Origin: a virus
Strand: one strand, 5' to 3'
Length of the DNA stretch: 64,000 bases
IMG/VR virus record: IMGVR_UViG_3300045988_164982
The stretch's first letter is position 1; each line of letters begins with the position of its first letter. The notes beneath the pieces were generated by a model, which saw nothing but the letters and a program-made list of their open reading frames with translations, did no database searches and was not told the DNA's origin. Below, piece by piece: positions 19,780 through 50,358 of the stretch. Made by a program: the position numbers and the translations under genes.

Positions 19780-21230
19780 CGCTTTCGCTGTCAACTACCT
19801 ACCACCTATAGAGGTGGAGGCTTGTAAGTCAAAAATCACTTAGGTACTAACGATATTATCTCCCTAATTTTGCCTACATCATCGGATGGTTGACAACACC
19901 CGTCTAGCCTAAAAGTATACTTCTAAGCTGTTAGTTTTGGTTTTTTCTCACCTGAAACATATCTCACACCTAATTGCTGAATATTCATAGCACCAACTCT
20001 ATCATCATTACTGCAATACCCACATTTACATCTAAAAATGTGAGATTTGTGGTTACGACTCTTTTTATCAATACATCCACACTTAGGACATCTCTGAGAC
20101 GTATATTGTGCAGGTACTTTTAATACAGCACTATGATTTAAATTAGCCTTATAGGTTAAGAATTGCTCTAACTGGTAAAAAGCCCATGAACGCTTCTCAC
20201 AACGACTTTCAGTAGAGCCTTTTAAATTATCCTCATCAAAGGTAATCCCTGTTAAATCTTCAAGTACAAAAAGTGTATTTTTACCATACTTCTTTATGAG
20301 TGTCTTAGATAGACAGTGATTAACATCTGTCATCCAACGGTTCTCTCGTCCTGAAATACGTTTTAATACTCTTTTAGCCGATTTTGTACCTTTAGACTGT
20401 AACTCTGCTCTTACTTTAGCAAATCTATTACGTTTAGTCCTAGCCTTATTTCCTGAAAAGAATGTAGTCTTTCCTTGCTCATCATAACACACTGCATGAA
20501 ATCTAATGCCTCTGTCAATACCAACTACATGAGCAATCTGTTCTGTATTTACAGCCTCAATTAACTTAGTAGCTGAAATGTGTAAGTACCAACTACCATC
20601 ATGTTCTACTAACTTAGCACTGCCAAGTTTCCAATCAGAAGAGAAATATTTATCAAAATTATCACTACATATAGGTGTAGCAAATATTCTGCCCTCTAAA
20701 GTATTAATAGATAAATTCCCGTTGGCTAACTTAGACCAATCACGATTACGAACAAGGTCGACTTGCGGATGTGCAAAATTTATAGGCTTCTCGAGCCATT
20801 CAAGATTCCTAGAAACATGATACCTCTTCTTAGTATTCTTATCTTGGAATCTATACGGATTTTGTTTCAACTGTGTTTTTACAGTCTTATATCTTGCAAT
20901 TGTAGAACGAATTGCAGATTGTGCCATCATGGATTTTAATCCAAATTTTACACGAATCTCACTATATATCCCTTTTTGTAATTTTAGCTGACTTAACTGA
21001 AACCCGTGTGTAAAGATATATTCGGAAATATAATTACAGGCTTGTCTATATTGCTCCATAGTATTAGTAACTTTAGAAACATCTTCAATACGATGTAAGT
21101 CTAACTTTACTTTTATTGTAATACCTTGTGTTATACTAGACAATCATATCACCTCCTTTGTTTAATTTATTTAATATATCTAGCAATTCCTCCCCCACTT
21201 CTATAAGTGGGGGGAGGAATTGCTAAAGTG
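19780..21230 (-). mobile_element. IS200/IS605-family insertion sequence carrying tnpB only (IS1341-like)
   Basis: A TnpB gene is followed by a perfect 20-bp-stem hairpin at 21181-21225. The 3' flank of about 140 bp is where the omega-RNA and right end are expected. Confidence 0.6.
19923..21143 (-). CDS. tnpB: TnpB (OrfB) RuvC-like RNA-guided nuclease
   Basis: The protein is 406 aa with a C-terminal CPKCG...CKCGYC zinc finger and a RuvC-like D/E/D pattern. TTG start follows AGGAGG. Confidence 0.8.
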   Translation of the reverse strand: MSSITQGITIKVKLDLHRIEDVSKVTNTMEQYRQACNYISEYIFTHGFQLSQLKLQKGIYSEIRVKFGLKSMMAQSAIRSTIARYKTVKTQLKQNPYRFQDKNTKKRYHVSRNLEWLEKPINFAHPQVDLVRNRDWSKLANGNLSINTLEGRIFATPICSDNFDKYFSSDWKLGSAKLVEHDGSWYLHISATKLIEAVNTEQIAHVVGIDRGIRFHAVCYDEQGKTTFFSGNKARTKRNRFAKVRAELQSKGTKSAKRVLKRISGRENRWMTDVNHCLSKTLIKKYGKNTLFVLEDLTGITFDEDNLKGSTESRCEKRSWAFYQLEQFLTYKANLNHSAVLKVPAQYTSQRCPKCGCIDKKSRNHKSHIFRCKCGYCSNDDRVGAMNIQQLGVRYVSGEKKPKLTA

Positions 21231-21943: not shown

Positions 21944-22762
21944 GTGGAAAATGTGATGGATTTAGCAGTAATTGAGCACGCAGGAGAGCGTGTGTTGACA
22001 ACAGAACAGTTAGCAGAGGTTTATGAATGTGATGTGAAACGAATATCGGAAAACTTCAAACGCAATGAAGATAGATTCGTTGAAGATAAACATTATTTCA
22101 AACTGACAGGGGCCACACTTAAAGCATTCAAGGCCTCATTAGGTAATCAGCAAATTGCGGAAAACCTAAAATTTGCTCCTAAAATTTATCTTTGGACTCG
22201 CCGAGGAGCTTCCAGACATTGCAAGATGTTAGGCACGGATAAAGCGTGGGAGATGTTCGACCAGCTGGAGGAAACATATTTCAACTCAAAGACTAAACAG
22301 TTGACATTGGCAGAACAGATGGCGCAGGGGCTGTTAGCTGCCAAAGAGTTATTGGAGGCCAAGGACAAGCAGGTTAAAGAACTCACAGCTACCTGTTCCC
22401 AGCAACAGCAAATGATAGGAGAGCTAAAGCCAAAAGCTGACTATGTTGACAGAATCCTAAAAAGTGATTCTCTAGTGACTATCACTCAGATTGCTAAAGA
22501 TTATGGCATGAGCGGTAAGGCTATGAACAAAGCACTTCACGACCTGCATATAATTTATAACTGCAATAGGCAGTGGCTTTTGTACAGCCAGCACCAAGCA
22601 AAAGGGTACACTTTCTCGGAAACAGTGGATATTCCTTTGGATGATGGCACCACCAAGGTCGTAATGAATACTAAGTGGACACAGAAAGGCCGATTGTTCC
22701 TGTATGAGATGCTGAAAAAACATGGAGTGATTCCACTGATTGAAAAACAAATTGGGGCGTAA
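21944..22762 (+). CDS. Phage antirepressor with ORF6N N-domain and KilA-C C-domain
   Basis: The N-terminus is VIEHAGERVLTTEQLAEVYECDVKRISENFKRNEDRFVEDKHYFKLTG. The C-terminus is antirepressor-like. Confidence 0.65.
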   Translation: MENVMDLAVIEHAGERVLTTEQLAEVYECDVKRISENFKRNEDRFVEDKHYFKLTGATLKAFKASLGNQQIAENLKFAPKIYLWTRRGASRHCKMLGTDKAWEMFDQLEETYFNSKTKQLTLAEQMAQGLLAAKELLEAKDKQVKELTATCSQQQQMIGELKPKADYVDRILKSDSLVTITQIAKDYGMSGKAMNKALHDLHIIYNCNRQWLLYSQHQAKGYTFSETVDIPLDDGTTKVVMNTKWTQKGRLFLYEMLKKHGVIPLIEKQIGA

Positions 22763-23762: not shown

Positions 23763-23873
23763 CACTGTTCCCAGCCGACCAAAGCGAAAACAGTGCTACA
23801 ACACAACAAAACCGAAAGGCTCTGTTAAATCTATTATAGCAGACCTTTCGGTGTAATGAAAGGAAAACTTAAT

Positions 23874-24725
23874 ATGAATTTTGAATTGGTGTGCAAAGAT
23901 AATGTATTTTATGCTGACAGTAGAGAGGTTGCAAAGCTGACCGGTAAACGCCATGACCATTTAGTACGTGATATTGATAGCTATGTCAATATAATTAATC
24001 AAAACCCAAAATTGGGGGCTGATGAACACTTAGGTCAAAATCCAAAATTGGATTCTGATAATTTCTTTGTAGAATCAAGCTATACAGCTGGCACTGGCAA
24101 AGCCTATAAATGCTATTTGCTGACTAAGAAAGGCTGCGATATGGTAGCCAACAAAATGACAGGCGAAAAGGGAATCCTGTTTACCGCTACATATGTGGAT
24201 AAATTCCATGAGATGGAGCACCAGCTGGAACATAACAGGCTCAATCATGTGAATGTTGTACAGCGTATATCAGACAGAGAGATTCAGCTGGAAGAAAAGA
24301 AACTAGCCCTAGAGGAAAAGAAATTTCTCTATGAGAGCTGGCTGAAACTTTCAAGCCTGACAGAGATTCCAGAGTATAAGCAAATTAGCCAGTCGTATGC
24401 GGCTAACACATTGGCTGGCAAAGAAGTCTTTGCACTACCACAGGTAACAGAAAAGACCTATACCGCCACCGAGGTGGGTGAGATGTTGGGCATATCGGCT
24501 AACAAAGTAGGTAAGCTGGCTAAGGGTAATAATCTGAAAACAGAGCAGTATGGTAAGTGGTTCTATGATAAGTCCAAGTATTCAGGTAAGCAGGTAGAAT
24601 CATTCAGGTACAACCAAGCTGGAGTAGAGGCTATCAGGGCAAAGCTAAACGACAATCATGGTAAAATCATAGGCTATGAGCCTTGTGGTGGAAGTGGCAA
24701 GCTGGTGGCCTTAGTACAGAAGTAA
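23874..24725 (+). CDS. Rha-family phage regulatory protein (antirepressor-like)
   Basis: The Rha N-domain is VFYADSREVAKLTGKRHDHLVRDIDSY. Its C-domain is shared with the ORF at 56913-57722. Confidence 0.7.
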   Translation: MNFELVCKDNVFYADSREVAKLTGKRHDHLVRDIDSYVNIINQNPKLGADEHLGQNPKLDSDNFFVESSYTAGTGKAYKCYLLTKKGCDMVANKMTGEKGILFTATYVDKFHEMEHQLEHNRLNHVNVVQRISDREIQLEEKKLALEEKKFLYESWLKLSSLTEIPEYKQISQSYAANTLAGKEVFALPQVTEKTYTATEVGEMLGISANKVGKLAKGNNLKTEQYGKWFYDKSKYSGKQVESFRYNQAGVEAIRAKLNDNHGKIIGYEPCGGSGKLVALVQK

Positions 24726-25216: not shown

Positions 25217-25234
25217 TAATTTCAGGTAAAAGAA

Positions 25235-25265
25235 AAGCCCCACCATTATGGCAGGGCTTTTTGAT
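25235..25265. terminator. Bidirectional terminator between convergent gene blocks
   Basis: The stem AAGCCC...GGGCTT is flanked by A-rich sequence on one side and T-rich on the other. Confidence 0.5.
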
Positions 25266-25305: not shown

Positions 25306-25737
25306 TCAAGCTGGTACCGCAGTAAAAGCTCCGTAACCATGTAGGAAGCGGTCTTCTTTGTCCTTGAATATTACCAGGTCATTGTCAATGCCAGCCGAGT
25401 AAATATTGTCGCTACAATCATCTACTAGCTTTTCCATAGCAGAATAACAAGCCTCGTTCTCATCGCTACTATCAATCAGGAATGGCAACGGCTTCACCAA
25501 CTCGTCCAGATTATAGGTTGATAAATTATTAAACATAATGGGTGTAATGTGTGCACAATAGACTCTAAAATACATAAATAAGCACCTCCAAGAACAAAAC
25601 AGTGTGAAAATATGCAATAATGCTAGCAGGAATGTTGTTAAAGCAACACACCTGCCAACAATTATAGCATTAGCAATTACGGTCGCTCCGCGGTGTTGTA
25701 ATTGCTTTGATTTCACCAACACTGGCAGCGGTATCAT
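25306..25737 (-). CDS. hypothetical protein
   Basis: It is the last gene of the reverse-strand island. It overlaps the upstream gene by 68 nt. Confidence 0.35.
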   Translation of the reverse strand: MIPLPVLVKSKQLQHRGATVIANAIIVGRCVALTTFLLALLHIFTLFCSWRCLFMYFRVYCAHITPIMFNNLSTYNLDELVKPLPFLIDSSDENEACYSAMEKLVDDCSDNIYSAGIDNDLVIFKDKEDRFLHGYGAFTAVPA

Positions 25738-26197
25738 CTAAAGCCTCAGCTAAAATGTGCATAGGTAGATTTAAATCTTTGTAGCCCCGATATAAAATGT
25801 CTAAATAATGCGGGCTGGGCAAACCAAGATGGCGGTCTTCGTGCATGATATAGGCCATACCGTCAGTCGGTGTATTTTGCCATTTTTCAGGGTATAAAGG
25901 CTTGAAATTTTCGATGGGCAAAGTTTTCTTGTAATAGAATGTAGGGTGTCCCTCATAGATGTCCAGACGGTTCTCATCAGCCTTAGAAATTGCCCAAACC
26001 AACACTGGCACCTTGCACAAAACATTCTTTTCAATGGTGGCATAATTGCCAGACTTGCTACCCTTGAACATGAGCTGATAGCCTGAAATATCAGCGATTC
26101 CAATGGGCATGGCATCAGGGCAACGATGGCTCATTTGTTGTAAATCCAAATTAGAACCATAGGCAAGATAAATGGAAAAATTCTTTGTTTTAGACAT
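25670..26197 (-). CDS. Gamma-glutamyl cyclotransferase-like protein of the GGCT/AIG2 family
   Basis: The N-terminal sequence SIYLAYGSNL is the GGCT-fold signature (human GGCT has FAYGSNL). The protein is 175 aa. Confidence 0.7.
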   Translation of the reverse strand: MSKTKNFSIYLAYGSNLDLQQMSHRCPDAMPIGIADISGYQLMFKGSKSGNYATIEKNVLCKVPVLVWAISKADENRLDIYEGHPTFYYKKTLPIENFKPLYPEKWQNTPTDGMAYIMHEDRHLGLPSPHYLDILYRGYKDLNLPMHILAEALDDTAASVGEIKAITTPRSDRNC

Positions 26198-26233
26198 GAT
26201 TTTAGCCTCCTAAAAATTGCATTATGTGAAAAG

Positions 26234-26440
26234 TTAATCGTTATCGGATAGTAATACATCTATAAGCCCTAAAAACCACACAATCCCATCAAGAAATGTG
26301 TTCAGGATATTCATAAGAAGTACGGGCAGATAGAACAATATGATGAAGAATGTAATGGGAAATAGAACAAGTCCCATAATACCGCCAAAAGAGGCATCTA
26401 TAATCTTGAACGTTTCCTTAGAGTCGCTATCAAATCCCAA
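26234..26440 (-). CDS. Small membrane protein
   Basis: It has two hydrophobic segments. Confidence 0.35.
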   Translation of the reverse strand: MGFDSDSKETFKIIDASFGGIMGLVLFPITFFIILFYLPVLLMNILNTFLDGIVWFLGLIDVLLSDND

Positions 26441-26860
26441 TTACATCACCTCCAAGCGTGCCTGATTCTTTAACATGAGGCCAGTCAGAAGCCTGTTCAG
26501 CTCGCAAACATCATCAACATCAATAGAGGTCGTGTTTTCGCCATCTCTACCAGCAAGGAAGATGTCACCAAACAAAAGCCCAGCATAGTCAAGCTCTCCA
26601 GTAGCCAATTTTAAAGGGTTCAAGCAGATATTTGGCTGTGGATTAGGTATAAGCAAAGCCTCATCATCAACAAAAATGTCATATTTTGCCAGTGGTGTTT
26701 TCAGAAGAATATCAGGCAGATAGCGGGTAGCTGGTACAAGGTTAAACAAACGACCGCCTACAAGATTTTGCATAGCCTTAATGTCGTGCTCTATTCGGAT
26801 GACTTCAGGCGTAAAACTATCAGCCTTTAAATGTAATACAGTAAGTTTTCCTTTTTTCAT
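26441..26860 (-). CDS. hypothetical protein
   Basis: RBS AAGGAGTGTACCATT precedes the ATG. It sits inside the accessory island. Confidence 0.4.
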   Translation of the reverse strand: MKKGKLTVLHLKADSFTPEVIRIEHDIKAMQNLVGGRLFNLVPATRYLPDILLKTPLAKYDIFVDDEALLIPNPQPNICLNPLKLATGELDYAGLLFGDIFLAGRDGENTTSIDVDDVCELNRLLTGLMLKNQARLEVM

Positions 26861-26955
26861 AATGGTACACTCCTTTTACAGTAAAGAATATTGATGTATG
26901 GTACATCTCATAGGGCATTAATACTGTGTACTAGTGCCCTATAGGACAAACCAGA

Positions 26956-27921
26956 CTAACATACAGCAGATTCAGCCACTAAGGCTGAGGGGGAGGAGGT
27001 ACGCCAAGCCACATTGCCAGACAGATTTTCTAATAGGAATTTACGACATGTTTCAAATTCTTTCCCCTTTAGCTTCAGTTGGTTAATAAAACAGTGCATG
27101 AGATATGCCTGATTGTCGGTTTGTGCTGGAGTAGGGTCGGCACGCTTTTTTGACTTTGCTAATTCCATGATAGCAAGTGCAAACTGAATTGCGGTCTTGA
27201 CTTTACCCGCATGGAGGGTGGAATTGAAAAGCCTAAACTCCACTGTGCCGTGCATTCCAAGCGAATGAAAATTCAATGCACGATAACGGCTGTCATGATA
27301 ATGCACGCTCTGCTGATGGCGTACCTCATCAGGCAAGCACGAATAAAAACTGGCCAAAAATTCATCTAGGGTAAAGTCACCAGTCAGTGCATTTATTGCC
27401 CTAGAATATCTCCCGCTCATTGGCTGACAATATGTGATGTTGCGGTGCTCATCATCAACCTGAAAGGCATTGAAAAACATTGCTTCATTCTTGTGCCAGA
27501 TGTTGGCTAAGACTCGCAGGTGCTTTGGCGTAAAGTCATCAGCACCTATGTGTACATGTAAGCCACAAGACCGGTTTACTTTAGCTCCGTATCTTTTCAG
27601 ATTACGAACGACCTCCTGTAGAATCTCGATGTCTTGACTGCCAGACAGTATCGGCGTGATTAATTCGCATTGAGATGTGGCAACATCATCACCCTCATGT
27701 GTTGGAGAACATGTCCTTATGCTAGAGTCACGGGCAATATACCAATTACGGCCTTTGCTGTCCTGATACACATATTTGTCATAGACACCACCACAAAAGT
27801 CCGTTTTAGCGAAAATGTTTTTGGAAATTGTAGTTGCAACAATGGCAATAGCCGCTGGCCTTGATACTCCGCAAAATTCCAGCTCTACACCAAAAGTGCG
27901 TGCCTCCATGTTTTCATTCAT
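26956..27921 (-). CDS. Amidoligase of the GCS2/glutamine-synthetase-like carboxylate-amine ligase family (Pfam Amidoligase_2-like)
   Basis: It has FGVELEF near the N-terminus and CGLHVHIGA, as in YbdK/GCS2. The true start is MNENMEARTF at 27921 with AAGGAG upstream. The ORF-track extension to 28041 translates a repeat element. Confidence 0.65.
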   Translation of the reverse strand: MNENMEARTFGVELEFCGVSRPAAIAIVATTISKNIFAKTDFCGGVYDKYVYQDSKGRNWYIARDSSIRTCSPTHEGDDVATSQCELITPILSGSQDIEILQEVVRNLKRYGAKVNRSCGLHVHIGADDFTPKHLRVLANIWHKNEAMFFNAFQVDDEHRNITYCQPMSGRYSRAINALTGDFTLDEFLASFYSCLPDEVRHQQSVHYHDSRYRALNFHSLGMHGTVEFRLFNSTLHAGKVKTAIQFALAIMELAKSKKRADPTPAQTDNQAYLMHCFINQLKLKGKEFETCRKFLLENLSGNVAWRTSSPSALVAESAVC

Positions 27922-28040
27922 AGTACATACACTCCTTAGAAATACATTGATAATATTCAGTCCTAAAGACTTTACACTGCCCACCAGGCGAAAGCTGGCA
28001 AGCAGGTTAAAACCTTTAGAGTATGGATATATTAAGCTCA
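27922..28040 (-). repeat. Cassette-junction repeat class B, copy 1
   Basis: It is about 85% identical to 29341-29445. It ends in AAGGAGTGTAT(G/T)TACT-ATG. Confidence 0.6.
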
Positions 28041-28043
28041 TCA

Positions 28044-28266
28044 GCAGCCAAGCGGATGGCCTTGTCGAAAAATTCCTGAGAAATTGACTTTTCTACAGTG
28101 CTGGCCATTTTGCCGTTGAAAAGTTCCCAGCAATCAGGGCCAATCTTGAATATGTTTTTTTATCAGTAGCGTCCAGCTGTTGCCCTAACCAAAAAATGTT
28201 GCCGTCAATGAGAAGTTTTGCAAGAATACCACCAAACTCGTCGTTATATTCACAATCCAGAACTGT
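28044..28266 (-). pseudogene. Small gene apparently frameshifted at an A7 run
   Basis: A 58-aa ORF, MTVLDCEYNDEFGGILAKLL..., has a strong RBS, AAAAAGGAGG. With one extra A the frame would run to 84 aa and end exactly at the junction repeat. Confidence 0.3.
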
Positions 28267-28284
28267 CATAATAAAACCTCCTTT

Positions 28285-28791
28285 TTATCGCGGTAATCTA
28301 GAAGTGACACGTAAAATTTTATCTTTATATATTTTTGAAATTTCGATATGAATATCATTGACTAGGGTGTTGAGGTCTGATATTTTTTCATTCAGCAGGG
28401 CAATGGTGTCCTCGACGTGTTCAGCTTGTGCTGTTAGGTCTGATATTACCTTTTTGATATATTCGGCTCGTTTGTCTATCAATACATTGAGCTTTTCGGC
28501 ATTGATACGCTTGCCGTCCAGAAAATCATCTAATTTACATATAACTAGATTGCGTGCATAATCATCACAAGCTCCGTCCTCGCGTTCTATTTTAATGCTT
28601 TTTTTATCATAGCTAGCGTGATAAACATAACAGCCAACTGACTCTAAGGCATTGTCAAAACGCTTGTTATAACACTTGCCATCAAACTGCTGGGCAATAG
28701 CTTTTACGCCATCGACCAGGGCAAAGGTCTTTTCATACTGAGAGATACGTGCCTGTAATAAAATTTCTTCTTTTGTCATGACTTTAGCCAT
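28285..28791 (-). CDS. hypothetical coiled-coil protein
   Basis: RBS TAGGAGGTTTTTATT precedes the ATG. Confidence 0.4.
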   Translation of the reverse strand: MAKVMTKEEILLQARISQYEKTFALVDGVKAIAQQFDGKCYNKRFDNALESVGCYVYHASYDKKSIKIEREDGACDDYARNLVICKLDDFLDGKRINAEKLNVLIDKRAEYIKKVISDLTAQAEHVEDTIALLNEKISDLNTLVNDIHIEISKIYKDKILRVTSRLPR

Positions 28792-28866
28792 AATAAAAAC
28801 CTCCTAAAAAGCTAACCACAAAAAATGCACTTGTGGTCATAAAGAATATATGGTATGATAATAGAG

Positions 28867-29340
28867 TCAAATTATACCTTTCCAAATGAGCTTATATTCA
28901 GGTAAGGAACGGATAGAAGTTGACGACTTTAGCTCCGTATCTATGCCGATGATGATGTGGTCTAGTACGGGAATATTCAGGATTTTTCCTGCCTCTACCA
29001 ATCGTCTAGTGGTATTAATATCATCCTCTGATGGAGTAGACACGCCACTGGGGTGGTTATGAGCTACGATGATGCTGGCCGCATTGTGCAGGATAGCAGG
29101 TGCAAACACCGACCTCGGCTCAACAACGGAGGCTGAGGAGCTACCCACGGAAATATCCTGAATAGCGATAACACCGCCCTTGATGTTCAAGCACATAACA
29201 GTGCAATGCTCGTATGGTTCATCTTTAAACCAGCTGGCCAGAATGGCGGTGGCATCATCAGCACCTGTGATGGTTTTAGTTTCGTAAAGATGACTGCCCT
29301 CACGGACAAGCTGAAGCTTGTAACTTGCAATTCTTTTCAT
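28867..29340 (-). CDS. RadC-like JAB/MPN-domain protein
   Basis: VAHNHPSGVSTPSEDD is the RadC JAB signature (HxHPSG...SxxD). Confidence 0.8.
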   Translation of the reverse strand: MKRIASYKLQLVREGSHLYETKTITGADDATAILASWFKDEPYEHCTVMCLNIKGGVIAIQDISVGSSSASVVEPRSVFAPAILHNAASIIVAHNHPSGVSTPSEDDINTTRRLVEAGKILNIPVLDHIIIGIDTELKSSTSIRSLPEYKLIWKGII

Positions 29341-29445
29341 AGTAAATACACTCCTTGTATGTAAAAGATTGATATTCAGCCTAAAGGCTTTACACTGCCC
29401 ACCAGATACAAATCTAATAGGCAGGTTAAAACTTTTAGGGTGGTA
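29341..29445 (-). repeat. Cassette-junction repeat class B, copy 2
   Basis: It is homologous to 27922-28040. The AGCC/GGCT hairpin here corresponds to an AGTC/GACT hairpin in copy 1, which is a compensatory change. Confidence 0.6.
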
Positions 29446-29979
29446 TCAGTACAACTCAATGTAACCACCAGCAGCAGGGATATAATGCCCCTCAATTTCA
29501 AGGTCGCGACCATAGGCCTCATAATCAAAGTACCGAAGTAAAAGGTCTATATCTTTGGAACGGTCACAACCGGGGCAGTTAAAATCTGCAATTACTTGAC
29601 GGGCTACATCTCCCATGTCGTCGCAATTGTCATAAAAGGTGTAGTTGTCGTCTTCTAGGATGGTCAAACCCTCCTCAATATTGCAGGAATACTCATAAAG
29701 AATAGCCTCAATAATCTCGTCGTCCTCGTCAATGTCTTCCAGCCGTTCTGCGACATCATTCACATGGTCATAAGAGGCGTACTCGCCAAAATTAACTGGG
29801 CTTTCCCAATCAGGGAAAAAGTACTCCTCGTGTTCGTCATCGCATCCAATGTCAGACAAAATCTCATTGAACTCATCAGAGGAAATAGGGAAGTCAATCC
29901 AACGGCCTTTATCAATGCCCTCGTTCCATAATCCCAGACAAGCGATATAACCACGGATAGCAATAGTATTGTTTTTCAT
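29446..29979 (-). CDS. ardA: ArdA-family antirestriction protein, a DNA mimic
   Basis: The N-terminus is IAIRGYIACLGLWNEGIDKGRWIDF. The protein is highly acidic, rich in D/E/Y. The start at 29979 has AAGGAGTGTATTATT upstream. Confidence 0.7.
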   Translation of the reverse strand: MKNNTIAIRGYIACLGLWNEGIDKGRWIDFPISSDEFNEILSDIGCDDEHEEYFFPDWESPVNFGEYASYDHVNDVAERLEDIDEDDEIIEAILYEYSCNIEEGLTILEDDNYTFYDNCDDMGDVARQVIADFNCPGCDRSKDIDLLLRYFDYEAYGRDLEIEGHYIPAAGGYIELY

Positions 29980-30016
29980 AATAATACACTCCTTTTTGAG
30001 ATACATAATCAGCATA

Positions 30017-30223
30017 TCAGCAGTTTTTCCACTTATTAGAAAACCACTCCCTATAAGCTACAATGTCGTCACCTTTATAGATGTACAAGGGTGTAAGCCG
30101 ACCAGCACACAAGCGACTTGCAAAGCGTTTGGCACTAGTCAAGGTCTTGCAATCAATATAGGAAGTGTTGGACGAGTAATTGTCTAATTCTTCTATGATA
30201 CGGAATACCATAATAAAAACCAC
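30017..30223 (-). CDS. hypothetical small protein
   Basis: CTGGAAAGGTGGTTTTTATT, the class A junction motif, precedes the ATG. Confidence 0.4.
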   Translation of the reverse strand: MVFIMVFRIIEELDNYSSNTSYIDCKTLTSAKRFASRLCAGRLTPLYIYKGDDIVAYREWFSNKWKNC

Positions 30224-30262
30224 CTTTCCAGAATCAGCCTAAAACGGCTGATTTTTTGCGTT

Positions 30263-30619
30263 TTAGTTTTTTGCGATGAAAAGCAACATGGAAATATTGA
30301 CTGTTTTGTATTGGGAGTAAAACCAGTCGTTAGGCTTGATATGGACGGTATAATTGTCATCTACATAGCTGAAAAGATGGTTAGATAAGTATTCAGCAAG
30401 GTCACAAACAGCCTGTGTCCTGTTGCAATTCATAGTAGTAACAAGCTCGTCAAGCTGTTCAGCATTAGCCTGTTTTAAGACTTTCGCAACCGCCAGCTCA
30501 TACATTGTCTCGGTATCAAATTCCATAATATCCACTCCTAAAAGACAAAGGCAGGTCAAAACACCGCCTTGAGACAAAAATTTTCTAAAACTGTCCACCA
30601 GTGGTGGAAAATAGGCCAA
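30263..30619 (-). CDS. hypothetical protein
   Basis: Open reading frame inside the island. Confidence 0.4.
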   Translation of the reverse strand: MAYFPPLVDSFRKFLSQGGVLTCLCLLGVDIMEFDTETMYELAVAKVLKQANAEQLDELVTTMNCNRTQAVCDLAEYLSNHLFSYVDDNYTVHIKPNDWFYSQYKTVNISMLLFIAKN

Positions 30620-30904
30620 TTTTCAGATGTTGCCTTGCCAGGAACGACTGACAAAGCAATCAGCAGGGAAAATCACCCTAAAAATGCTATCTAGCTATAA
30701 CAAAAAGTGCATAGCTGGGCAGCTAAAACCGGTAAAAGATGAATACCGAACACTCAATATTCATAAAGGATAACAAAAATCCCGCCTTTAGACTTTTCGC
30801 CTTGAAAAATATATAACAAAATTGTTATATTAATCCGTTAGGCGGGTAAAGAAGTCCACCCACAACCAAATTACCAGCAGGTAAAAGGCTAGATAGTATA
30901 ATTT

Positions 30905-31058
30905 TTTCATTCTAAAACCACCTTTCAAATGTTTATGTGCAAAGTTTACAAAATTTCATAGCTAACCATTCCAGATTTTGTGAAAGGTTAACAATCATGG
31001 TAAAAACCACTTATGATACCTATTACATTTTTGTAGGTAATAGGCATTTAAGAAGTTT
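30905..31058 (-). repeat. Cassette-junction repeat class A (other copies at 31326-31434 and 30224-30262)
   Basis: The unit is GCATTTAAGARGTTTT, then a hairpin, then TATCATAAGYGGTTTT, then GGAAAGGYGGTTTTWGAA-ATG. The hairpin stems differ in sequence between copies but stay complementary. Confidence 0.55.
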
Positions 31059-31325
31059 TTAATCATGGGGCATGGTAGGCAGATGACTGATGACTGGGGT
31101 AAAATACCCCTTGTTATAGTAGGCATCTACTTCTGCCATGCTATTGAACTCTATAGTCCAATCTTTTACAACTTGGCAAGAAAATCCGACATCACTCAGT
31201 AAACACCTATAGTCAACTACATACTTGTTTTTAATATGATACAAGTTTGCATGTATGCTGAGGGTCTTGCCGTTTTTCGTTTTTACAACGTTATGAGTAG
31301 CTATACAATCCTCTAGTTTACGCAT
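31059..31325 (-). CDS. hypothetical protein
   Basis: ORF flanked by class A junction repeats. Confidence 0.4.
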   Translation of the reverse strand: MRKLEDCIATHNVVKTKNGKTLSIHANLYHIKNKYVVDYRCLLSDVGFSCQVVKDWTIEFNSMAEVDAYYNKGYFTPVISHLPTMPHD

Positions 31326-31434
31326 TTCAAAAACCGCCTTTCCAGGATTTACAAATTTTCATTCACGGAATAAAACCGCTTATGATACCCACCGCCCAGC
31401 AAGGCGGTGAGCATTTAAGAGGTTTTATTTATCA
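31326..31434 (-). repeat. Cassette-junction repeat class A, copy 2
   Basis: It is homologous to 30905-31058 and has the CACCGCC...GGCGGTG hairpin. Confidence 0.55.
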
Positions 31435-31938
31435 TCAATTCCAATAGATTGCCCAAGCTCTTTCCCTTGCCAATTCCTCAAGCAGGTCGTGCTCTTTGTT
31501 GGCTACTAGGGCATTGATAATTTTTACATCTAACTCGGACGGTACGTTATTGATATAGCATATATACCAGCCCTTACCGCAACAAATATCATAAAGGTGA
31601 TTTAGGAGGGCGTGCTCACCATTGCCCCACATATCGTATATGGTTTGGTCAAAGTTATCGCCGTACATATCCATGAGGTCGTCAGCACACTCGATGTGAT
31701 CTCTCCATAAGATATAGTAATTAGAGTTACTGCTGATTATGCTTTTTTCAGCAGACAAGGTCAGCACACCAGCAAGCTGGTCGGCTGGATAGTAGTTAAT
31801 AGCGTTTGACCATGTATGACAAATATGTACATCACACTCCCGCTCGATTACCATCTCAACGGCAACTTGGCTGGCTTTTACGGCCTCAACCAGCTTTGCC
31901 TCAAAATCCCAGTATTCGCTATATGTATACTTCTCCAT
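31435..31938 (-). CDS. hypothetical protein (first gene of the reverse-strand island)
   Basis: RBS AAGGAGTGTTTCATT precedes the ATG. Confidence 0.4.
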   Translation of the reverse strand: MEKYTYSEYWDFEAKLVEAVKASQVAVEMVIERECDVHICHTWSNAINYYPADQLAGVLTLSAEKSIISSNSNYYILWRDHIECADDLMDMYGDNFDQTIYDMWGNGEHALLNHLYDICCGKGWYICYINNVPSELDVKIINALVANKEHDLLEELARERAWAIYWN

Positions 31939-31979
31939 AATGAAACACTCCTTTGTATTGCTTATTATTATTCTGACTA

Positions 31980-32430
31980 ATAGCCATTAGTCTGCCCTTT
32001 ACCTATGCGGGTAATGAGCAGGTAAAGGCTACAAGGTCGGCAGGGAATACACCGCTCCGCCATGACATTATGGCAGTGTACTTTGCTGATAGTATGCCAC
32101 ATATCACACCGCCAGCTGTAGCAAGCTAGCTATGGCATACCGTTTCTGTCAGCGTGTCCGCTACATCATCATAGCGGGTGGGCGTACTACACCTGTAGCA
32201 CGACTTTGAGCTGTATGCGGTTTTCAAGGTACAACCGTTCCTTGCAGGTGGCTTACACCTGTGGGTAGACTACTCCCTGTCCTGCCTCCTATTTCAGGAC
32301 GACTTTAATACATCTATTTGTTCGCTTTTGTTTGGCGGTTGCGACTCCGCCTGTACGGTACACGCCCCGCACGGTTGGCGGTCTAGGGGGTAGGCTTTCA
32401 ACTTTGTTCCTGTTCCCCTTGACAATTATA
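31980..32430. other. GC-rich, hairpin-dense ORF-free segment; candidate structured ncRNA or single-strand DNA element
   Basis: It contains many 6-10 bp inverted repeats, for example GCCCTTTACCT...AGGTAAAGGC, CCGCTA...TAGCGG, GTCCTG...CAGGAC and CCGCC...GGCGG. There are TACACCTGT direct repeats. Its composition differs from the AT-rich flanks. Confidence 0.35.
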
Positions 32431-32666
32431 TTATAACTCTACACCTATATAATGTCAATACTTTTTATATATTTTTTGGCAGCCTGTGTGTATTTTTTAT
32501 GTGGCGTTTTGTATTTTACCAGAGGTCAAGCGGATGTTTGCTCGGTACTGCCCTGGGAGCTACGCTAGGGAATTGCATGGTCTAGCTCTAAAATTTTTCC
32601 CAAATTTGAAATCCATTTGTGCAAGGTTAATCAACTGCGTTTTGTATAAAAATCTACAAAAAATCA

Positions 32667-32736: not shown

Positions 32737-33327
32737 ATGGCGGTAGTAAAGGAAACAAGCATACAAATTAGGATGAGCGAAGATGAAAAAGCCATATTAA
32801 AGGCATTAGCTGAACAAAAGGGGCTTACATTATCAGACTTTGTACGCAGCGTATGTAAGCAGACAGTTATTAATAGCATGAGTGGCAGTTGCAACCTACA
32901 GGATAGGGAAGAAAGCGGCCAAATCACAAATAAGAATGATGTGAACCTAGGTGAGAAAAATCTAACACTTTTAGGAGGGGACGATTGGGTAGCATATTCT
33001 TTTAATACCACGAAGAATACGAGTGAGATTCTGAACGCTGTTGCTAAAGCTAACAACACAACAGCCAATAAAATGATAAGAACACTGCTATTAGCATGGC
33101 TAAGGGGAAAGACGAACAATGAGAATAGTGGAGTAGGAAGTATTTCTATATCCCCTAGAAAAAGAGGAGAAAAAAACTCGGTCACTATCGGTCTTACCTT
33201 GACTAAGAATGACAGAGAAGCAATTTTAGGCTATTTAGCACAGTCAGGAGATAAACTTACTGGACTGCTAGATACCCTGATAGACACCTATGTGAAACCA
33301 CAGCACAATGAACTGAAAGGGGAGTAG
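32737..33327 (+). CDS. Tandem ribbon-helix-helix DNA-binding protein
   Basis: There are two RHH-like units, IQIRMSEDEKAILKALAEQKGLTLSDFVRSV and SVTIGLTLTKNDREAILGYLAQSGDKLTGLLDTLI. Confidence 0.5.
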   Translation: MAVVKETSIQIRMSEDEKAILKALAEQKGLTLSDFVRSVCKQTVINSMSGSCNLQDREESGQITNKNDVNLGEKNLTLLGGDDWVAYSFNTTKNTSEILNAVAKANNTTANKMIRTLLLAWLRGKTNNENSGVGSISISPRKRGEKNSVTIGLTLTKNDREAILGYLAQSGDKLTGLLDTLIDTYVKPQHNELKGE

Positions 33328-33332
33328 CAACC

Positions 33333-34922
33333 ATGATTAAGAAAGCAATCACCCTAGCAGTGGTATTAGTTATGCTGATGGCAAGCCAATGTTATGCAAA
33401 GAAAACAGCTCTAACGAATTTTGAATTAGATGAACTAGCACGACACATAGAAATAAACCTAAGCAGCATGGGTATGAGAGCACATTTCATTCAGGACAAT
33501 CCGAACGAAATGACTTTAACCCTAGAAGCTAGTAAGTATAAGTTCGTCACAGTCAAAAATAGTAATGGTACATTGCAAAACCTTATCTGGTATGATATTG
33601 GTGGCTCTGCTGCTGGTAAAGATATTCTCTCTATGCTAAATGAGAGTATTTTCGCAACTATCGGTTTCCCAAAAGAAGATAGGATAGAAAGCAACCCTGT
33701 TAATAATCGCCGTATAGGAGTAACGACATGGAATATACGCTCAAAACGATTGAAGCAGGAACTGCTTTACCAGGTAAAATATGACAGCAAAAATAATCGA
33801 ACGCTGTTTTCGCTTGGGAATGAACCTATAGATTCTGCATTGAACAGCATACAGCTAGCGGAAAATACTAACAACTTGATAGGTTTTGGAATTGACGAAT
33901 ATATCAAACATTTACAAATAAATCTTAATGGTAGAGGTATTACAAGTGAAATTAGTAAAAATAGTCAAAATGATATTGATGTTACCGTAAAAAATCAAAA
34001 AAGTGGATTTTCTACTTATAGAATGATTGCCAAAACAAAAAACAATGGCTCAATAGGAGGTGTCGTTTGGTATTTAAAAACTGGCAATCCCACAGTTTAT
34101 GAAGATATGGATTTTATCAGAAGCATATGCGATACTTTAGAAATAGAGTCTAATAGCGTCCACACATTTGCTTTTGGCTCTCATTTACAGCGTATAGGCG
34201 ATGGAGTATTTGTAGGTAGTTTCTTAGATAAACAAAAGGGGTATTCAATAAGATATGGAAATCGTTATAATGGTGACATTATCATTAGAGGAATAGTCTG
34301 CGAACCTATAAATTTAAATGATTTATGGTATGATATTGATGGCTTGGAAGAATCTACAGAAAGCTACGATGAAAAAATATTTAAGCAGGAAATTGAAGAA
34401 CTATCAGTGCTAAGTCGGCATGGAGCACAAGCAATCTATGAACAATTGCCTACTATATATCACGACACTCCAGATTATAAACTGACAGAGCTGCATACAA
34501 GGGACAACAAGACCTACATTTGTACTGCATACTATAAAGATTCATCGTGCGATATTTACTTCACGCAGAATGATAAAGGAAAGCTTGATACCGCAGCTAT
34601 AATGTTTGATAGTGATGACAAGCGGGATGCTGCCATAGCAAGCTATGGTAAAATCACTATGGCTATCGGAATGTCAACAGCGGATGCATTAAATTTACAT
34701 GCTAATGCAATACATAATGCTGAACAACGACTTTATGTACAAAAACTAGCTGGAAATACTATAATGCATGGGTTAAGCGATATGTATGATAGTAGTAGAA
34801 AGCATTTCTCTTTAATGTTTGCATATGATGAAATAGCTAAGAAGTTTAGTCTTTTGCTTGGGGTTATTGCCCCATCACCTAGTGAAATAGCGGATTATCG
34901 CAATGAATTAGGTATGAATTAA
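33333..34922 (+). CDS. Secreted 529-aa protein with internal repeats (moron)
   Basis: The signal peptide is MIKKAITLAVVLVMLMASQCYA. There are two related ~150-aa modules, IEINLSSMGMRAHFIQDNPNEMTLTL and HLQINLNGRGITSEISKNSQNDIDVTV. Confidence 0.5.
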   Translation: MIKKAITLAVVLVMLMASQCYAKKTALTNFELDELARHIEINLSSMGMRAHFIQDNPNEMTLTLEASKYKFVTVKNSNGTLQNLIWYDIGGSAAGKDILSMLNESIFATIGFPKEDRIESNPVNNRRIGVTTWNIRSKRLKQELLYQVKYDSKNNRTLFSLGNEPIDSALNSIQLAENTNNLIGFGIDEYIKHLQINLNGRGITSEISKNSQNDIDVTVKNQKSGFSTYRMIAKTKNNGSIGGVVWYLKTGNPTVYEDMDFIRSICDTLEIESNSVHTFAFGSHLQRIGDGVFVGSFLDKQKGYSIRYGNRYNGDIIIRGIVCEPINLNDLWYDIDGLEESTESYDEKIFKQEIEELSVLSRHGAQAIYEQLPTIYHDTPDYKLTELHTRDNKTYICTAYYKDSSCDIYFTQNDKGKLDTAAIMFDSDDKRDAAIASYGKITMAIGMSTADALNLHANAIHNAEQRLYVQKLAGNTIMHGLSDMYDSSRKHFSLMFAYDEIAKKFSLLLGVIAPSPSEIADYRNELGMN

Positions 34923-34928
34923 ATCGCA

Positions 34929-35020
34929 ACCCATAAAAATGTGATAAACCCAGCCAAATAACCCATAAAAATGTGATTGACATATGCCAAACAATGCATG
35001 ATAATGTGATTAAAGGAGGG
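34929..35020 (+). promoter_or_regulatory. Direct-repeat operator and promoter of the toxin-antitoxin pair
   Basis: ACCCATAAAAATGTGAT occurs twice, with a third ATGTGAT copy. They flank a TTGACA box. Confidence 0.4.
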
Positions 35021-35027
35021 GATAAAA

Positions 35028-35687
35028 ATGAGAGATGCTTATGATTTTGCCAAGTATTTTATAAAGAACGGCTATGATTCCAATCCAAACACATACGATG
35101 GAAACATGAAACTTCAAAAAATGTTGACATTCGCAAATGCTATAAGCCTTGCAGAATACGGCAGCCCCCTGTTCAATGATAAAATATTAGCTTTTACTAA
35201 TGGCTGTGTTGTAGAAAAGGTCAGACTGAGATATAGGAATGATTATAAGGGTTTAAAACGAGATAGCGATGTATTTCAGCCAGATTTTACAGAGCAGGAA
35301 TACGATGTACTGAATTTGACTGTAGGAATATTCGGCAAGGAAAGTGCCGTGACATTATCCAATGTCAATCACGAGTTCAGTTTTTGGAATGAACCATATC
35401 ATAGAGGCATGGTCAATGATAGCTATCATGACAAAGAAAAATCAGTTGTTAATATGGAGGATTATCCCAAAGATATATCCGTGATAAAAGGTATGATTGA
35501 TATATACAGACAAAATCATAAAGATAGTAATAAGAGTGAGCTAATAAACGGCATTACTTTTTACTATGATGGTTTTGAGCTGACCGACAGCATTGTCCAT
35601 GAGCTTGCAGAGTTTGCACTGTCTGGGGAGGCAGAGGATAGTTCTTATACGGTCTGCCTTGATGATGGAGAGCTGGTGATTTACTGA
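35028..35687 (+). CDS. Panacea-domain (GepA/DUF4065/SocA-like) antitoxin-type protein
   Basis: The N-terminus is AYDFAKYFIKNGYD...NMKLQKMLTFANAISLAEYGSPLFND, which is the GepA/Panacea signature. Confidence 0.65.
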   Translation: MRDAYDFAKYFIKNGYDSNPNTYDGNMKLQKMLTFANAISLAEYGSPLFNDKILAFTNGCVVEKVRLRYRNDYKGLKRDSDVFQPDFTEQEYDVLNLTVGIFGKESAVTLSNVNHEFSFWNEPYHRGMVNDSYHDKEKSVVNMEDYPKDISVIKGMIDIYRQNHKDSNKSELINGITFYYDGFELTDSIVHELAEFALSGEAEDSSYTVCLDDGELVIY

Positions 35688-36046
35688 TGGAATTGAAAGC
35701 AGGTCACATCGTCAAAGGCAAACTTCCTTTTCGAGATGGCAAAATACCATTGTATAGCAGACCTTATCTGATTGTGAAAATAGATTGCGATACAGTGGAT
35801 TTGCTAAATATATCATCTACAGACGGCAAGGAATGGAAACTGGCCATGAAATCAAATATGGCTATAGTAAATTACGATCCACCACTAAACAAGCCATCGT
35901 TTGTTAAACTTGATTCGCGCATAACAGTTCCATTGGAAAAGGTATGTAGTCTAAAGTTATGGGGTTCGCAGCCGTTATGTGAAAGTGAATTAGTGAAAAT
36001 AATCAATGCCCTAGAGGTATTTGAAGTAGATGAAACAGAAAAATAA
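35687..36046 (+). CDS. MazF/PemK-like putative toxin
   Basis: It has an ATGA overlap with the Panacea gene. The protein is 119 aa. GHIVKGKLPFRDGKIPLYSRPYLIV parallels the MazF/Kid pattern GD/EIW...P..G.E....RP.LV. The C-terminal D.RIT....KV..... pattern also matches. Confidence 0.4.
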   Translation: MELKAGHIVKGKLPFRDGKIPLYSRPYLIVKIDCDTVDLLNISSTDGKEWKLAMKSNMAIVNYDPPLNKPSFVKLDSRITVPLEKVCSLKLWGSQPLCESELVKIINALEVFEVDETEK

Positions 36047-38449: not shown

Positions 38450-38482
38450 GACTGTTTGCTAATTGGCAAGCGGTCTTTTTTG
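38450..38482 (+). terminator. Intrinsic terminator in the leader between the promoter and the first late gene
   Basis: A 10-bp stem with 2 G-U wobble pairs, GACTGTTTGC...GCAAGCGGTC, is followed by TTTTTT. It lies 15 nt before the start at 38497. Confidence 0.5.
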
Positions 38483-38496
38483 TTGGGGGCAATAAA

Positions 38497-40033
38497 AATG
38501 TATAAAACAGAGGCTAAACCAAGAGTGGTTACAGCTGATGGTGTACCAGTATTCTGTGGGCATGATAAGATTTTAAAGATTAAGGATTTGAAGCCTAATC
38601 CTAAAAATCCTAATCAGCACAATGCCAAGCAGATAGGGCTACTGGCAACAATCATCAAATCAAACGGCTGGCGGGCACCTATTACTGTCAGCAAAAGAAG
38701 TGGATATATAGTAAAAGGGCATGGTCGCAGACAGGCAGCAATATCCGCAGGCCTAAAGGAAGTGCCTGTAGAGTATCAGGATTATGCTACTGCGGCAGAG
38801 GAAAATGCCGACTTGCTGGCAGATAATCGTATAGCAGAGCTTTCAGATATTGATAATGACAAGCTCATGGATATGATTAAGGATACTGACTTTGGGGAAA
38901 TGCCTGTAGAACTCACAGGTTTTACCACAGAGGATTTAGCTGATATTCTTAATGAAATTGAGAATAGTGATGATGAGGTTGAAGATGATGGTGCGGATTC
39001 CGAATCTGGCACCGATGAAGAGATTCCACCATTTACCAAGCCTAATGATTTATGGCATTTGGGTGATCATAGACTTTTGTGTGGCTCTGCAACAAGCACA
39101 GAGGATATAGATAGGCTGATGAATGGCGATATGGCACAACTTGTACATACCGACCCGCCATATGGTGTTAGTTTTGTCGGAAGCGGTCGTGGCGAGAATA
39201 AATTCGGCATGATAAAGAATGACGATAAGACAGATGATGCCTTGATGGGTCTTTTAGTGCCAGCATTTAAGAATTATATGCGGTACACCAAGTCGGATGC
39301 TGCTTTCTACGTTTGGTATGCCTTTGCTTCCAGGAGAGAGTTTGAAGATTCTATGACGGCTGTAGGACTTATCCCTAAGCAACAGATAATTTGGGTAAAG
39401 AATAACTTTGTGCTTGCCCATAACGATTATCATTGGATTCACGAACCATGCCTGTATTCAGAGAAAGCTGGACAACACGCAAAATTCTTTGGCGACCGCT
39501 CCAATGTAACGGCATGGACAGCGACAGTCCGTACCGGTAAGGATATGGCCACCACAGTAAAAGGCGGTGTAGTGCTGACTGACGGAGATGGGCACAAGAT
39601 AGCTATCTCCGACAAGACTGTCAAAGGCAAAAAAATGAGGTATATTCGCCTTGATGAAAACAAAAGCGTATTCCTCTATAATGAACCTGCTAATGGTACT
39701 GTTTGGGAATTTGCTAAGGAATCGCACCCTATTCACCCTACACAGAAGCCAGTGGAAATACCTGCTAAAGCTATTTTGAACAGCTCCGAGGCTGGTGATG
39801 TTGTACTTGACTTCTTTGGTGGCAGTGGTAGCACACTTATTGCCTGTGAAATGACAGGTAGAAAATGTCGCTCTACAGAGCTTGACCCAAAATATTGCGA
39901 TGCCATTGTAAAGCGATACGCTGAAATTGCTCCTACTGGAACTATTACCTGTGAAAGAGATGGTCAGGAGTATTCCTATTCCGAGATACAGGCAATGTAC
40001 CAGCAGGAACACCCAGATGTAATGATAGATTAA
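38497..40033 (+). CDS. ParB-like nuclease N-domain fused to a DNA methyltransferase (N6-adenine/N4-cytosine type, beta class)
   Basis: The ParB-like N-terminus is LKPNPKNPNQHN...GHGRRQAAISAG. The methyltransferase motif IV (DPPY) comes before motif I (FFGGSGST). Confidence 0.8.
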
Positions 40034-40231: not shown

Positions 40232-40320
40232 ATATACCGAAATAGTTCAATGAAGAACGTTCAGTGATGAAAGATAGAGGTTCAAGTCCTCTGATTGGTC
40301 AAAATAGGAAAGGGGGTGGA

Positions 40321-50123: not shown

Positions 50124-50358
50124 GTCCTTACGAGGTTATACAAAAGCTAATCTCGCACGGACATACTAAAGAACAAATACTCTATGATTATAGCGTTTCA
50201 GAAGTCCGTCTTTTCTACGAAAAGGTGGTTTCTGATGAAATGCGTGAACAAGCAGATTTTATTGACGGAATTGTTGCAGGTATTGGCGGTGCTTTTGGGG
50301 GGTATAAGCAATTGCAGAGTTCGCTTGCACTTCTTAGAGAGGGCGTGACACACGAATG
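49683..50358 (+). CDS. Tail assembly chaperone G-T fusion produced by a programmed -1 ribosomal frameshift
   Basis: The in-frame slippery heptamer T_TTT_TTC lies at 50057-50063. The -1 frame is open from 49997 to the TGA at 50356-50358, which overlaps the TMP ATG. Confidence 0.6.

Follow-up and report, generated by a model that had tools for sequence, protein, structure and literature searches.

A conserved amidoligase-cyclotransferase pair in a putative reverse-strand accessory operon of a Firmicutes-type prophage

Within a 64,000-nucleotide (nt) stretch of viral DNA (IMG/VR record IMGVR_UViG_3300045988_164982; hereafter the window, in whose coordinates all positions are given), an island of reverse-strand genes at 25306-31938 encodes the anti-restriction protein ArdA, a RadC-type protein, a ligase of the Amidoligase_2 family and a gamma-glutamyl cyclotransferase (GGCT). 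In a survey of gene neighborhoods around the ligase, the ligase-GGCT pair is the only part of this island that is conserved together across distant elements. The island as a whole is probably, though by no means certainly, best explained as a moron-type accessory operon, a mosaic of independent cargo that includes the ligase-GGCT module. The pairing of such ligases with AIG2 proteins in Firmicutes reportedly goes back to Iyer, Abhiman, Burroughs and Aravind in 2009; the Pfam note for Amidoligase_2 likewise states that the family co-occurs with an Aig2-family cyclotransferase in Firmicutes.

Results

The two genes of the pair are positioned as follows.

26956..27921, minus strand: Amidoligase_2 enzyme of 321 amino acids (aa), a predicted ATP-dependent carboxylate-amine ligase (PF12224; phrog_2443)
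25670..26197, minus strand: GGCT/AIG2-type gamma-glutamyl cyclotransferase, 175 aa (PF06094; phrog_2520, 1.4e-38)

A first-pass annotation of the window had named four families in the island (ArdA, RadC, Amidoligase_2 and GGCT/AIG2) and quoted motifs for three of them (FGVELEF and GLHVHIG in the ligase, AYGSNL in GGCT, HNHPSGVSTPSEDD in RadC); all four assignments held up, with Pfam profile hits above the cut-offs and agreement from PHROGs, and every quoted motif is in the translations. The ligase open reading frame (ORF; 26956-28041, with the start most likely at 27921 as judged from the ribosome-binding site, RBS) matched its Pfam family at 197.2 bits vs. a cut-off of 22 (E 5.3e-58) over profile positions 2-245 of 245. 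Twenty homologues at 38-63% identity share residues E13, E15, E86, H122, H124, R212, E228 and R230 without exception, and we surmise that these conserved residues serve the binding of metal, ATP and carboxylate. The structure model of the ligase is confident (predicted local distance difference test score, pLDDT, 88.7) and, as modeled, has the fold of glutamate-cysteine ligase (GCL), glutamine synthetase and PafA, in all of which ATP activates the gamma-carboxylate of glutamate prior to transfer to an amine; a profile search against PDB sequences returned nothing at E ≤ 1, leaving fold comparison as the only informative one. The cyclotransferase matched GGACT/AIG2 at 34.1 bits vs. a cut-off of 22.8 (E 4.5e-8) and aligned to human GGCT (2pn7, E 4e-5) with the YGSNL motif and the catalytic glutamate (..EG..) in register; among 154 homologues, conservation of the YGSN motif and of Glu82 stands at 96-97%. 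Neither the ligase nor the GGCT sequence has a signal peptide or a membrane segment. In the window, genes for a DUF3846 protein and a small membrane protein stand between the two.

A ligase search in a large protein set yielded 2657 homologues, and confirmed ligase loci amounted to at least 540 in a viral collection and at least 540 in a genome collection. Our survey comprised 167 loci (80 from species-representative genomes, 80 from viral contigs, plus individual contigs; single loci are given L numbers below), in which six-frame naive ORFs were searched with profiles iterated from the window proteins. Pairing was scored on loci for which ≥1.5 kb of sequence was available downstream (n = 148), or on the 87 non-redundant ones left after collapsing ligases at ≥90% identity. 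GGCT immediately followed the ligase on the same strand in 128/148 loci and 75/87 non-redundant ones, bearing out the earlier view of the two as a conserved pair. This adjacency persists at 35-46% ligase identity, in unrelated phages and integrative and conjugative elements (ICEs), as well as across phages with three unrelated terminase types. Co-conservation of the wider neighborhood, as implied by the first-pass annotation, stood for the pair but not for ArdA, RadC and DUF3846, which were seen beside the ligase only in L001-L005 and L176-L179; ArdA and RadC occur together with the pair only in L001-L004 and L176-L179, and L005 has DUF3846 adjoining the pair. These loci are prophages with identical gene content flanking the island, i.e., one lineage, and no RadC-motif (JAMM) ORF was found in the other ~160 loci. 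As ArdA, RadC and DUF3846 are limited to this single lineage, the four-gene co-occurrence is taken as linkage by descent and not as evidence of one system.

Two further components recur around the pair, both of them missing from the window. The DUF4314 domain was found in 70 loci, fused to the C-terminus of GGCT in 20 (Pfam-confirmed; e.g., L104:5416-6036) and solo in 50, the solo version being encoded immediately beside the pair; the fusion points to a functional (Rosetta-stone) link between GGCT and this otherwise unexplained domain. A degenerate paralogue of the ligase lies directly upstream of the ligase in ~70 loci (e.g., L008:8909-9673). Undetected by Pfam, it matched the ligase with an hhalign probability of 99.7% over the C-terminal half, retaining the C-terminal helical region and having lost the HxH and EFR motifs. 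The arrangement paralogue-DUF4314-ligase with GGCT missing was observed at L019:8937-11851 and in ~20 others, including Acidaminococcus and several viral contigs.

With respect to the carriers of the pair, a terminase or portal gene was located within 5 kb in 104/167 loci, and 93 of these 104 also had a ParB-N6 or C5 DNA methylase; the usual phage order is methylase(s)-(paralogue)-ligase-GGCT-(DUF4314, HNH)-TerS-TerL. Another 24 loci, all from bacterial genomes, have a VirB4/TraG-like ATPase of a type IV secretion system (T4SS) and an NlpC/P60 hydrolase upstream; of the 87 loci taken from genomes, 31 were phage-marked and 24 ICE-marked. A clear ICE is L069:2665-19663, where the pair resides within the transfer module in the order TrbL, VirB4/TraG-like ATPase, ligase, GGCT, a 390-aa unknown, MobL relaxase, Toprim protein and VirD4. 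Other neighbors were a DUF6103 ORF just upstream of the ligase in 26 loci, a phage-encoded S-adenosylmethionine synthetase (MetK) beside methylases upstream of the pair in 22 loci (e.g., L164:7956-9077) and, in a myovirus-type prophage (L006:10001-12640), a holin-amidase cassette followed by the pair, an 84-aa ORF and an ADP-ribosylglycohydrolase gene. By tblastn, the ligase of the window was matched in 92 phage vs. 10 plasmid records, compared with 18 vs. 161 for ArdA and 44 vs. 2420 for RadC. Among the phages found as carriers are Bacillus phages 055SW001 and PBC5, Geobacillus phage GR1 and Faecalibacterium phage Taranis, all more tractable than the uncultured prophage of the window. The nearest relatives of the window ligase (93%, 62% and 46% identity) are all prophage-borne, and it is equidistant (~38%) from the phage-marked and ICE-marked sets. 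The island would accordingly read as a mosaic of plasmid-typical ArdA and RadC beside a phage-typical enzyme pair.

The remaining features of the island, in the direction of its transcription, are listed here.

32430..32458, minus strand: predicted island promoter, TTGACA-17-TATAAT, 12/12 consensus matches
31939..32423, minus strand: structured 5' leader of ~480 nt with few ORFs, none convincing (folding, compensatory pairs)
31435..31938, minus strand: first ORF, 167 aa, acidic (net charge -17), no family, conserved in relatives
31059..31325, minus strand: 88-aa ORF, no family, present in L177 and L178
30263..30526, minus strand: ~87-aa ORF, no family, extending to 30619 with a TTG start; 87-92 aa in relatives
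30017..30211, minus strand: ~64-aa ORF, no family; 64 aa in relatives
29446..29979, minus strand: ArdA anti-restriction DNA mimic, 177 aa (PF07275; phrog_2059; start from RBS alignment)
29336..29441, minus strand: intergenic hairpin-plus-RBS element, copy upstream of RadC, a direct repeat with 27917-28022 (nhmmer self-matches)
28867..29340, minus strand: short solo RadC-type JAMM/JAB protein, 157 aa (PF04002, 125.9 bits vs. 22.1, E 1e-36)
28285..28791, minus strand: 168-aa ORF, no family; a 63-aa ORF takes its place in L178
28093..28269, minus strand: small ORF just upstream of the ligase, frameshifted; 58 aa vs. 84-85 aa in L001, L177 and L178
27917..28022, minus strand: intergenic hairpin-plus-RBS element, copy upstream of the ligase, a direct repeat with 29336-29441
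26441..26860, minus strand: DUF3846 protein, 139 aa (Pfam PF12957, 38.1 bits vs. cut-off 27.5, E 1.9e-9)
26234..26440, minus strand: small hydrophobic (membrane) protein, 68 aa, grand average of hydropathy 1.12; homologue in L005, lineage-specific
25306..25575, minus strand: last ORF, ~89 aa, acidic, no family; 89-91 aa in relatives
25233..25261, minus strand: predicted intrinsic terminator, a 13-bp stem then a T-run, directly after the last ORF

All ORFs of appreciable length between 25306 and 31938 are on the minus strand while both flanks are on the plus strand. Since a consensus promoter and a strong terminator bound the island, it looks like a single operon of ~7.2 kb. The promoter is conserved in relatives L002, L176, L177 and L178; an inverted-repeat scan of the promoter region gave no convincing operator. 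Of the 13 ORFs, five were assigned Pfam families above curated thresholds and the other eight had no match in Pfam, PHROGs or PADLOC. Among the PHROGs matches of island proteins was also phrog_10276, and PADLOC models gave no defence-system match to the island, the sole marginal one being JAB for RadC (E 7.6e-4).

The leader is predicted to be structured, as suggested by: 1) a folding z-score of -3.55, more stable than 100/100 shuffles; 2) compensatory double changes at 9 base pairs in five relatives vs. 2.4±1.3 for shuffled and 0-2 for slid controls, an excess owed mostly to one divergent sequence; 3) in the most divergent relative, L178, a leader that is 81-92% identical, compared with just 62-68% in the adjacent first ORF. 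No Rfam family matched the leader at the gathering or E-value threshold, exact-word scans of viral and metagenome contigs returned near-identical copies plus chance 17-mer matches only, and nhmmer against all retrieved loci found no distant homologue; so far, the leader is known from one prophage lineage only. The intergenic repeat element is ~105 nt long and comprises a hairpin of ~24-26 bp followed by a common RBS, AAGGAGTGTA; the hairpin of the RadC-side copy has a folding z-score of -4.98. A variant of the repeat forms the 3' end of the leader (about 31954-32045), and relatives hold a further copy before ArdA. These repeats may be sites of processing or stability in a polycistronic RNA, or alternatively a cassette junction.

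The ArdA ORF (29446-30015) matched Pfam at 107.6 bits vs. a cut-off of 27 (E 1.2e-30) over profile positions 2-155 of 155, and its start is most likely at 29979, the ATG after AAGGAGTG, as judged from RBS alignment. With 46 aspartic and glutamic acid residues vs. 10 lysine and arginine residues, the protein has a net charge of -36 and an isoelectric point of 4.05, a charge that fits a DNA mimic of the ArdA type; by family precedent, it would block type I restriction-modification enzymes. The metal-binding motif HxHx7Sx2D of the RadC-type protein is present as HNHPSGVSTPSEDD. Pfam finds only the JAB domain (residues 25-134), the helix-hairpin-helix N-terminus of canonical chromosomal RadC being missing; given this and the length of 157 aa, the protein is a solo JAB version of RadC.

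As for the ORFs without an assigned role, the 168-aa ORF was considered as a remnant of the degenerate ligase paralogue of the ~70 other loci, a possibility that was ruled out as no match was found. Truncation of the small ORF just upstream of the ligase traces to a 1-nt deletion in an A-run (about 28155-28161), which may be a genuine frameshift or else a sequencing error in the homopolymer. A homologue search with the DUF3846 protein returned only proteins of ≥70% identity, all from the same island, thus offering no independent context, and its AlphaFold2 model (16 close homologues) reached a pLDDT of 44 and was unusable.

Landmarks of the flanking sequence are as follows.

2815-3864: integrase, left of the island
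4556-5062: cI-like repressor, left of the island
21944-22762: Ant, upstream of the island
23856-24725: Rha, upstream of the island
32737..33327, plus strand: ribbon-helix-helix (RHH; DUF6290/NikA-like) protein, divergent to the island (Pfam; repressor families in PHROGs)
38456-40033: ParB-methylase, downstream of the island
40264-40929: TerS, downstream (PHROGs)
40943-42202: TerL, downstream
45662-46774: P22-type coat protein, downstream
50356-56868: 2170-aa ORF, interpreted as the tape measure on account of size and position

The window is a temperate tailed-phage genome (prophage) of Firmicutes type, and the island lies where the first-pass annotation had put it, between the antirepressors (Ant and Rha on the left) and the late operon (ParB-methylase and terminase on the right). 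The left side also carries a recombination block (SMC-like, RecT and metallo-beta-lactamase proteins), a DnaC-like loader and an inserted TnpB, before the Ant and Rha regulators; the TnpB gene (OrfB_IS605 plus Cas12f-like TNB domain; 19923-21143, minus strand) sits in the early region, and relative L001 has one too. On the right, the order is RHH protein, 529-aa protein, Panacea-domain protein, two more antirepressors, ParB-methylase, TerS, TerL and coat, with the ParB-methylase ~10 kb from the ligase-GGCT pair. The GC content of the island (0.38-0.44) is similar to that of the remaining phage. No relaxase, T4SS gene or origin of transfer (oriT) was found near the island or in the window, and no tRNA gene was found as a possible marker of the attachment site. 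When compared by megablast with GenBank phages and PLSDB plasmids, the island gave no match; the element thus has no close sequenced relative in these collections. The divergent RHH neighbor is kept in all relatives, and we would consider it a candidate regulator of the island promoter. The stretch at 33333-36046 (plus strand) encodes a 529-aa protein without family match, whose hydrophobic N-terminus resembles a signal peptide as judged by eye; downstream of it are a Panacea (SocA-like) domain protein and a 119-aa partner, which may constitute a toxin-antitoxin-like pair. All three proteins adjoin the island in relatives L002 and L177 as well.

Discussion

We postulate that the island would be laid out as a consensus host-type promoter, a leader of ~480 nt, 13 ORFs and a strong terminator, with some of the ORFs behind a hairpin-plus-RBS repeat, and that it would represent a patchwork of cargo items that move independently (ArdA; a solo RadC/JAMM protein; DUF3846; Amidoligase_2 plus GGCT) instead of one multi-protein machine. 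Within the pair, the ligase may write a gamma-glutamyl amide onto an amine acceptor, be it a lysine of a protein, a polyamine or some small molecule, and the cyclotransferase may erase the gamma-glutamyl group as 5-oxoproline. Together, the two enzymes would then carry out a write/erase cycle on a target amine or, alternatively, install a transient protecting or activating group, for which butirosin biosynthesis offers a precedent in its BtrG step. As for its biological role, we regard it as quite possible, though short of probable and by association, that the pair helps an incoming element to establish itself via counter-defence or host takeover, because the pair resides in both phages and ICEs, lies beside methylases or ArdA, and is found here behind a promoter that can be read early; matching the consensus fully, the window promoter should be read by host RNA polymerase immediately on entry. 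The first-pass annotation had proposed an anti-restriction or anti-defence cargo, and an anti-restriction flavor is reasonable with ArdA present, but the four genes do not form one system. We are more doubtful of a bolder version, in which the pair, often accompanied by DUF4314 and the dead paralogue, would be an unrecognized counter-defence or host-takeover module of Firmicutes phages and ICEs that reversibly gamma-glutamylates a host immune or housekeeping target, or consumes an amine or gamma-glutamyl signal, and that would be deployed here from an immediate-early anti-restriction operon with a new leader RNA processed at hairpins.

Several observations weigh against this account of the pair and its operon: 1) the gamma-glutamyl chemistry proposed for the pair is deduced from the analogous fold and from the partner enzyme; 2) a ligase and its eraser, when expressed together, may run a futile cycle; 3) in about 14% of loci (about 20, e.g., L019), there is no GGCT downstream of the ligase, so the cyclotransferase is dispensable in some lineages; 4) counter-defence is guilt by association, and the site upstream of the terminase is a general hotspot of accessory genes; 5) the ICE site beside NlpC/P60 and the L006 site after the lysis cassette would fit an envelope role equally well; 6) the promoter and terminator are consensus matches predicted from sequence; and 7) the ArdA screen of the other loci was by phmmer seeded with the window protein, with which divergent ArdAs may be missed.

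The main rival of counter-defence, which we deem doubtful, is a role in envelope or metabolite modification, whereby the pair would alter peptidoglycan precursors, surface polymers or the pool of amino acids and polyamines, leading to lysogenic conversion, superinfection exclusion or auxiliary metabolism. In papers that cite Iyer et al. 2009, phage amidoligase clusters have indeed been treated as modules for peptidoglycan or cell-wall modification (PMC11945000, PMC11318856) and as auxiliary genes of nitrogen metabolism (PMC10945688). The pair follows a VirB4-like ATPase and an NlpC/P60 hydrolase in ICEs and a holin-amidase cassette in L006; in addition, a small membrane protein is encoded between the DUF3846 and GGCT genes in the window lineage, and the moron-like architecture permits expression in the lysogen. 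However, across loci, small membrane ORFs are no more frequent near the pair than far from it (4.4% vs. 4.4%), neither enzyme carries a signal peptide or membrane segment itself, and the usual phage site adjoins DNA methylases. From the established chemistry of GGCT, the enzyme needs a gamma-glutamyl group with a free alpha-amino group, a feature missing from the D-isoglutamate in the stem peptide of peptidoglycan.

We consider it improbable that the island in its entirety was taken up recently as the leading region of a conjugative element. The first-pass annotation had leaned towards such a capture by the phage, a view that fits ArdA and RadC, both plasmid-typical in the record counts given above, but not the ligase, which is phage-typical with its nearest relatives borne on prophages; the pair being phage-typical, capture from a conjugative element is not needed to explain it. 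The NikA-like RHH domain of the divergent neighbor would agree with a conjugative origin, and the long structured leader loosely recalls single-strand promoter elements; on the other hand, a normal double-stranded sigma-70 promoter is present, relaxase, T4SS and oriT are absent nearby, GC content matches the remaining phage and the island occupies the same site across a whole family of related prophages. Nothing in these data points to recent capture of an ICE leading region.

Hypermodification of DNA or nucleotides, with the ligase decorating a modified base with an amino acid or amine in concert with methyltransferases as a means of evading restriction, is in our judgment very improbable. 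The proximity of ParB-N6 or C5 methylases to the pair in most phage-marked loci, sometimes along with the S-adenosylmethionine synthetase, would suit this scheme, and amidoligase domains have been noted in clusters for thymidine hypermodification (PMC8989533). Nevertheless, methylase adjacency is largely missing from ICE-marked loci and the methylase of the window is 10 kb away; a 5-hydroxymethyldeoxyuridine kinase, aGPT-Pplase, dUMP hydroxymethylase or TET/JBP enzyme was present in none of the neighborhoods that were read individually, and GGCT has no obvious role on DNA.

Least probable of all is one integrated tag/de-tag system, in which the ligase would attach a gamma-glutamyl or peptide tag for removal by GGCT and the RadC JAB protein, with ArdA and DUF3846 as partners: while the genes share one operon here and in close relatives, the ligase fold is common to the Pup ligase PafA and the depupylase Dop, and the JAMM motif of RadC is intact, RadC and ArdA are near the ligase in one prophage lineage only, no gene for a Pup-like or ubiquitin-like tag was recognized, the small ORF adjoining the ligase is frameshifted in the window, and the RadC clade has been argued to lack the groove for a ubiquitin tail and to act on nucleic acids instead of ubiquitin-like tags (PMC5512222). 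The de-tagging role earlier suggested for the JAB protein finds no contextual support. The small ORFs of the island match no family, and outside the lineage none of them accompanies the pair in conserved form; DUF4314, the sole widely linked small domain, is absent here.

Compared with known systems, the window is a well-preserved, ordinary example of a module that has already been described computationally. It shares with the Amidoligase_2 (PF12224)-AIG2/GGCT pair of Firmicutes mobile elements both families, the ligase-then-cyclotransferase order, the strand and intact motifs; it differs in that the pair is away from the usual methylase-terminase site and in a reverse-strand operon with ArdA, RadC and DUF3846, lacks the degenerate paralogue and DUF4314 partner of ~40% of loci, and has the DUF3846 and small membrane ORFs inserted between its two genes. 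Both families are annotated in PHROGs (2443 as amidoligase, 2520 as gamma-glutamyl cyclotransferase), and the pairing known from Pfam and the 2009 study is taken up again in prophage surveys, where genes labeled 'amidoligase' and 'gamma-glutamyl cyclotransferase' lie close together in Clostridium clostridioforme prophages (PMC11318856). The pair had been called functionally uncharacterized in the first-pass annotation, and in agreement with this the literature searched held no paper giving it an experimental function. The window ligase has no detectable sequence similarity to any PDB chain, PafA/Dop and GCL/YbdK included; at 321 aa it is much smaller than these and has no Pup-like tag or proteasome context. 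Clusters for 'peptidoglycan modification' in proteobacterial phages (phiEco32, LUZ24-like) resemble it in having Amidoligase_2 and sometimes GGCT (PMC11945000, PMC3890496), but they further contain genes for an ATP-grasp enzyme, a COOH-NH2 ligase and a glutamine amidotransferase, all three of which the window lacks.

ArdA of the window resembles the Tn916 Orf18 type in its full-length Pfam match and extreme negative charge, differing in being phage-borne and not on a conjugative element; phage-borne ArdA is already on record in phiCD211 and Paenibacillus phages. Plasmid leading-region anti-defence islands (Samuel et al. 2024, PMC11541004) likewise have ArdA and RadC-type genes that are clustered and co-oriented under one upstream control region. 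The window, in contrast, is a double-stranded DNA phage with no oriT or relaxase and with a conventional double-stranded promoter; the word 'amidoligase' has 0 occurrences in that paper, and the ligase-GGCT pair is not in it. The window stands out by its pair having been relocated to an ArdA/RadC operon, by the structured leader and by the hairpin repeats, the latter two being the least expected features and confined so far to one phage lineage.

The ligase-cyclotransferase pair is very common, with the retrieved loci belonging to phages and conjugative elements of Firmicutes from the gut and the environment. That the pair shares an operon here with a bona fide anti-restriction gene gives rise to a concrete, testable hypothesis, namely a role in establishment or counter-defence. 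Should it be true that the pair gamma-glutamylates a host target, this would constitute a new enzymatic mechanism in the counter-defence of phages and ICEs.

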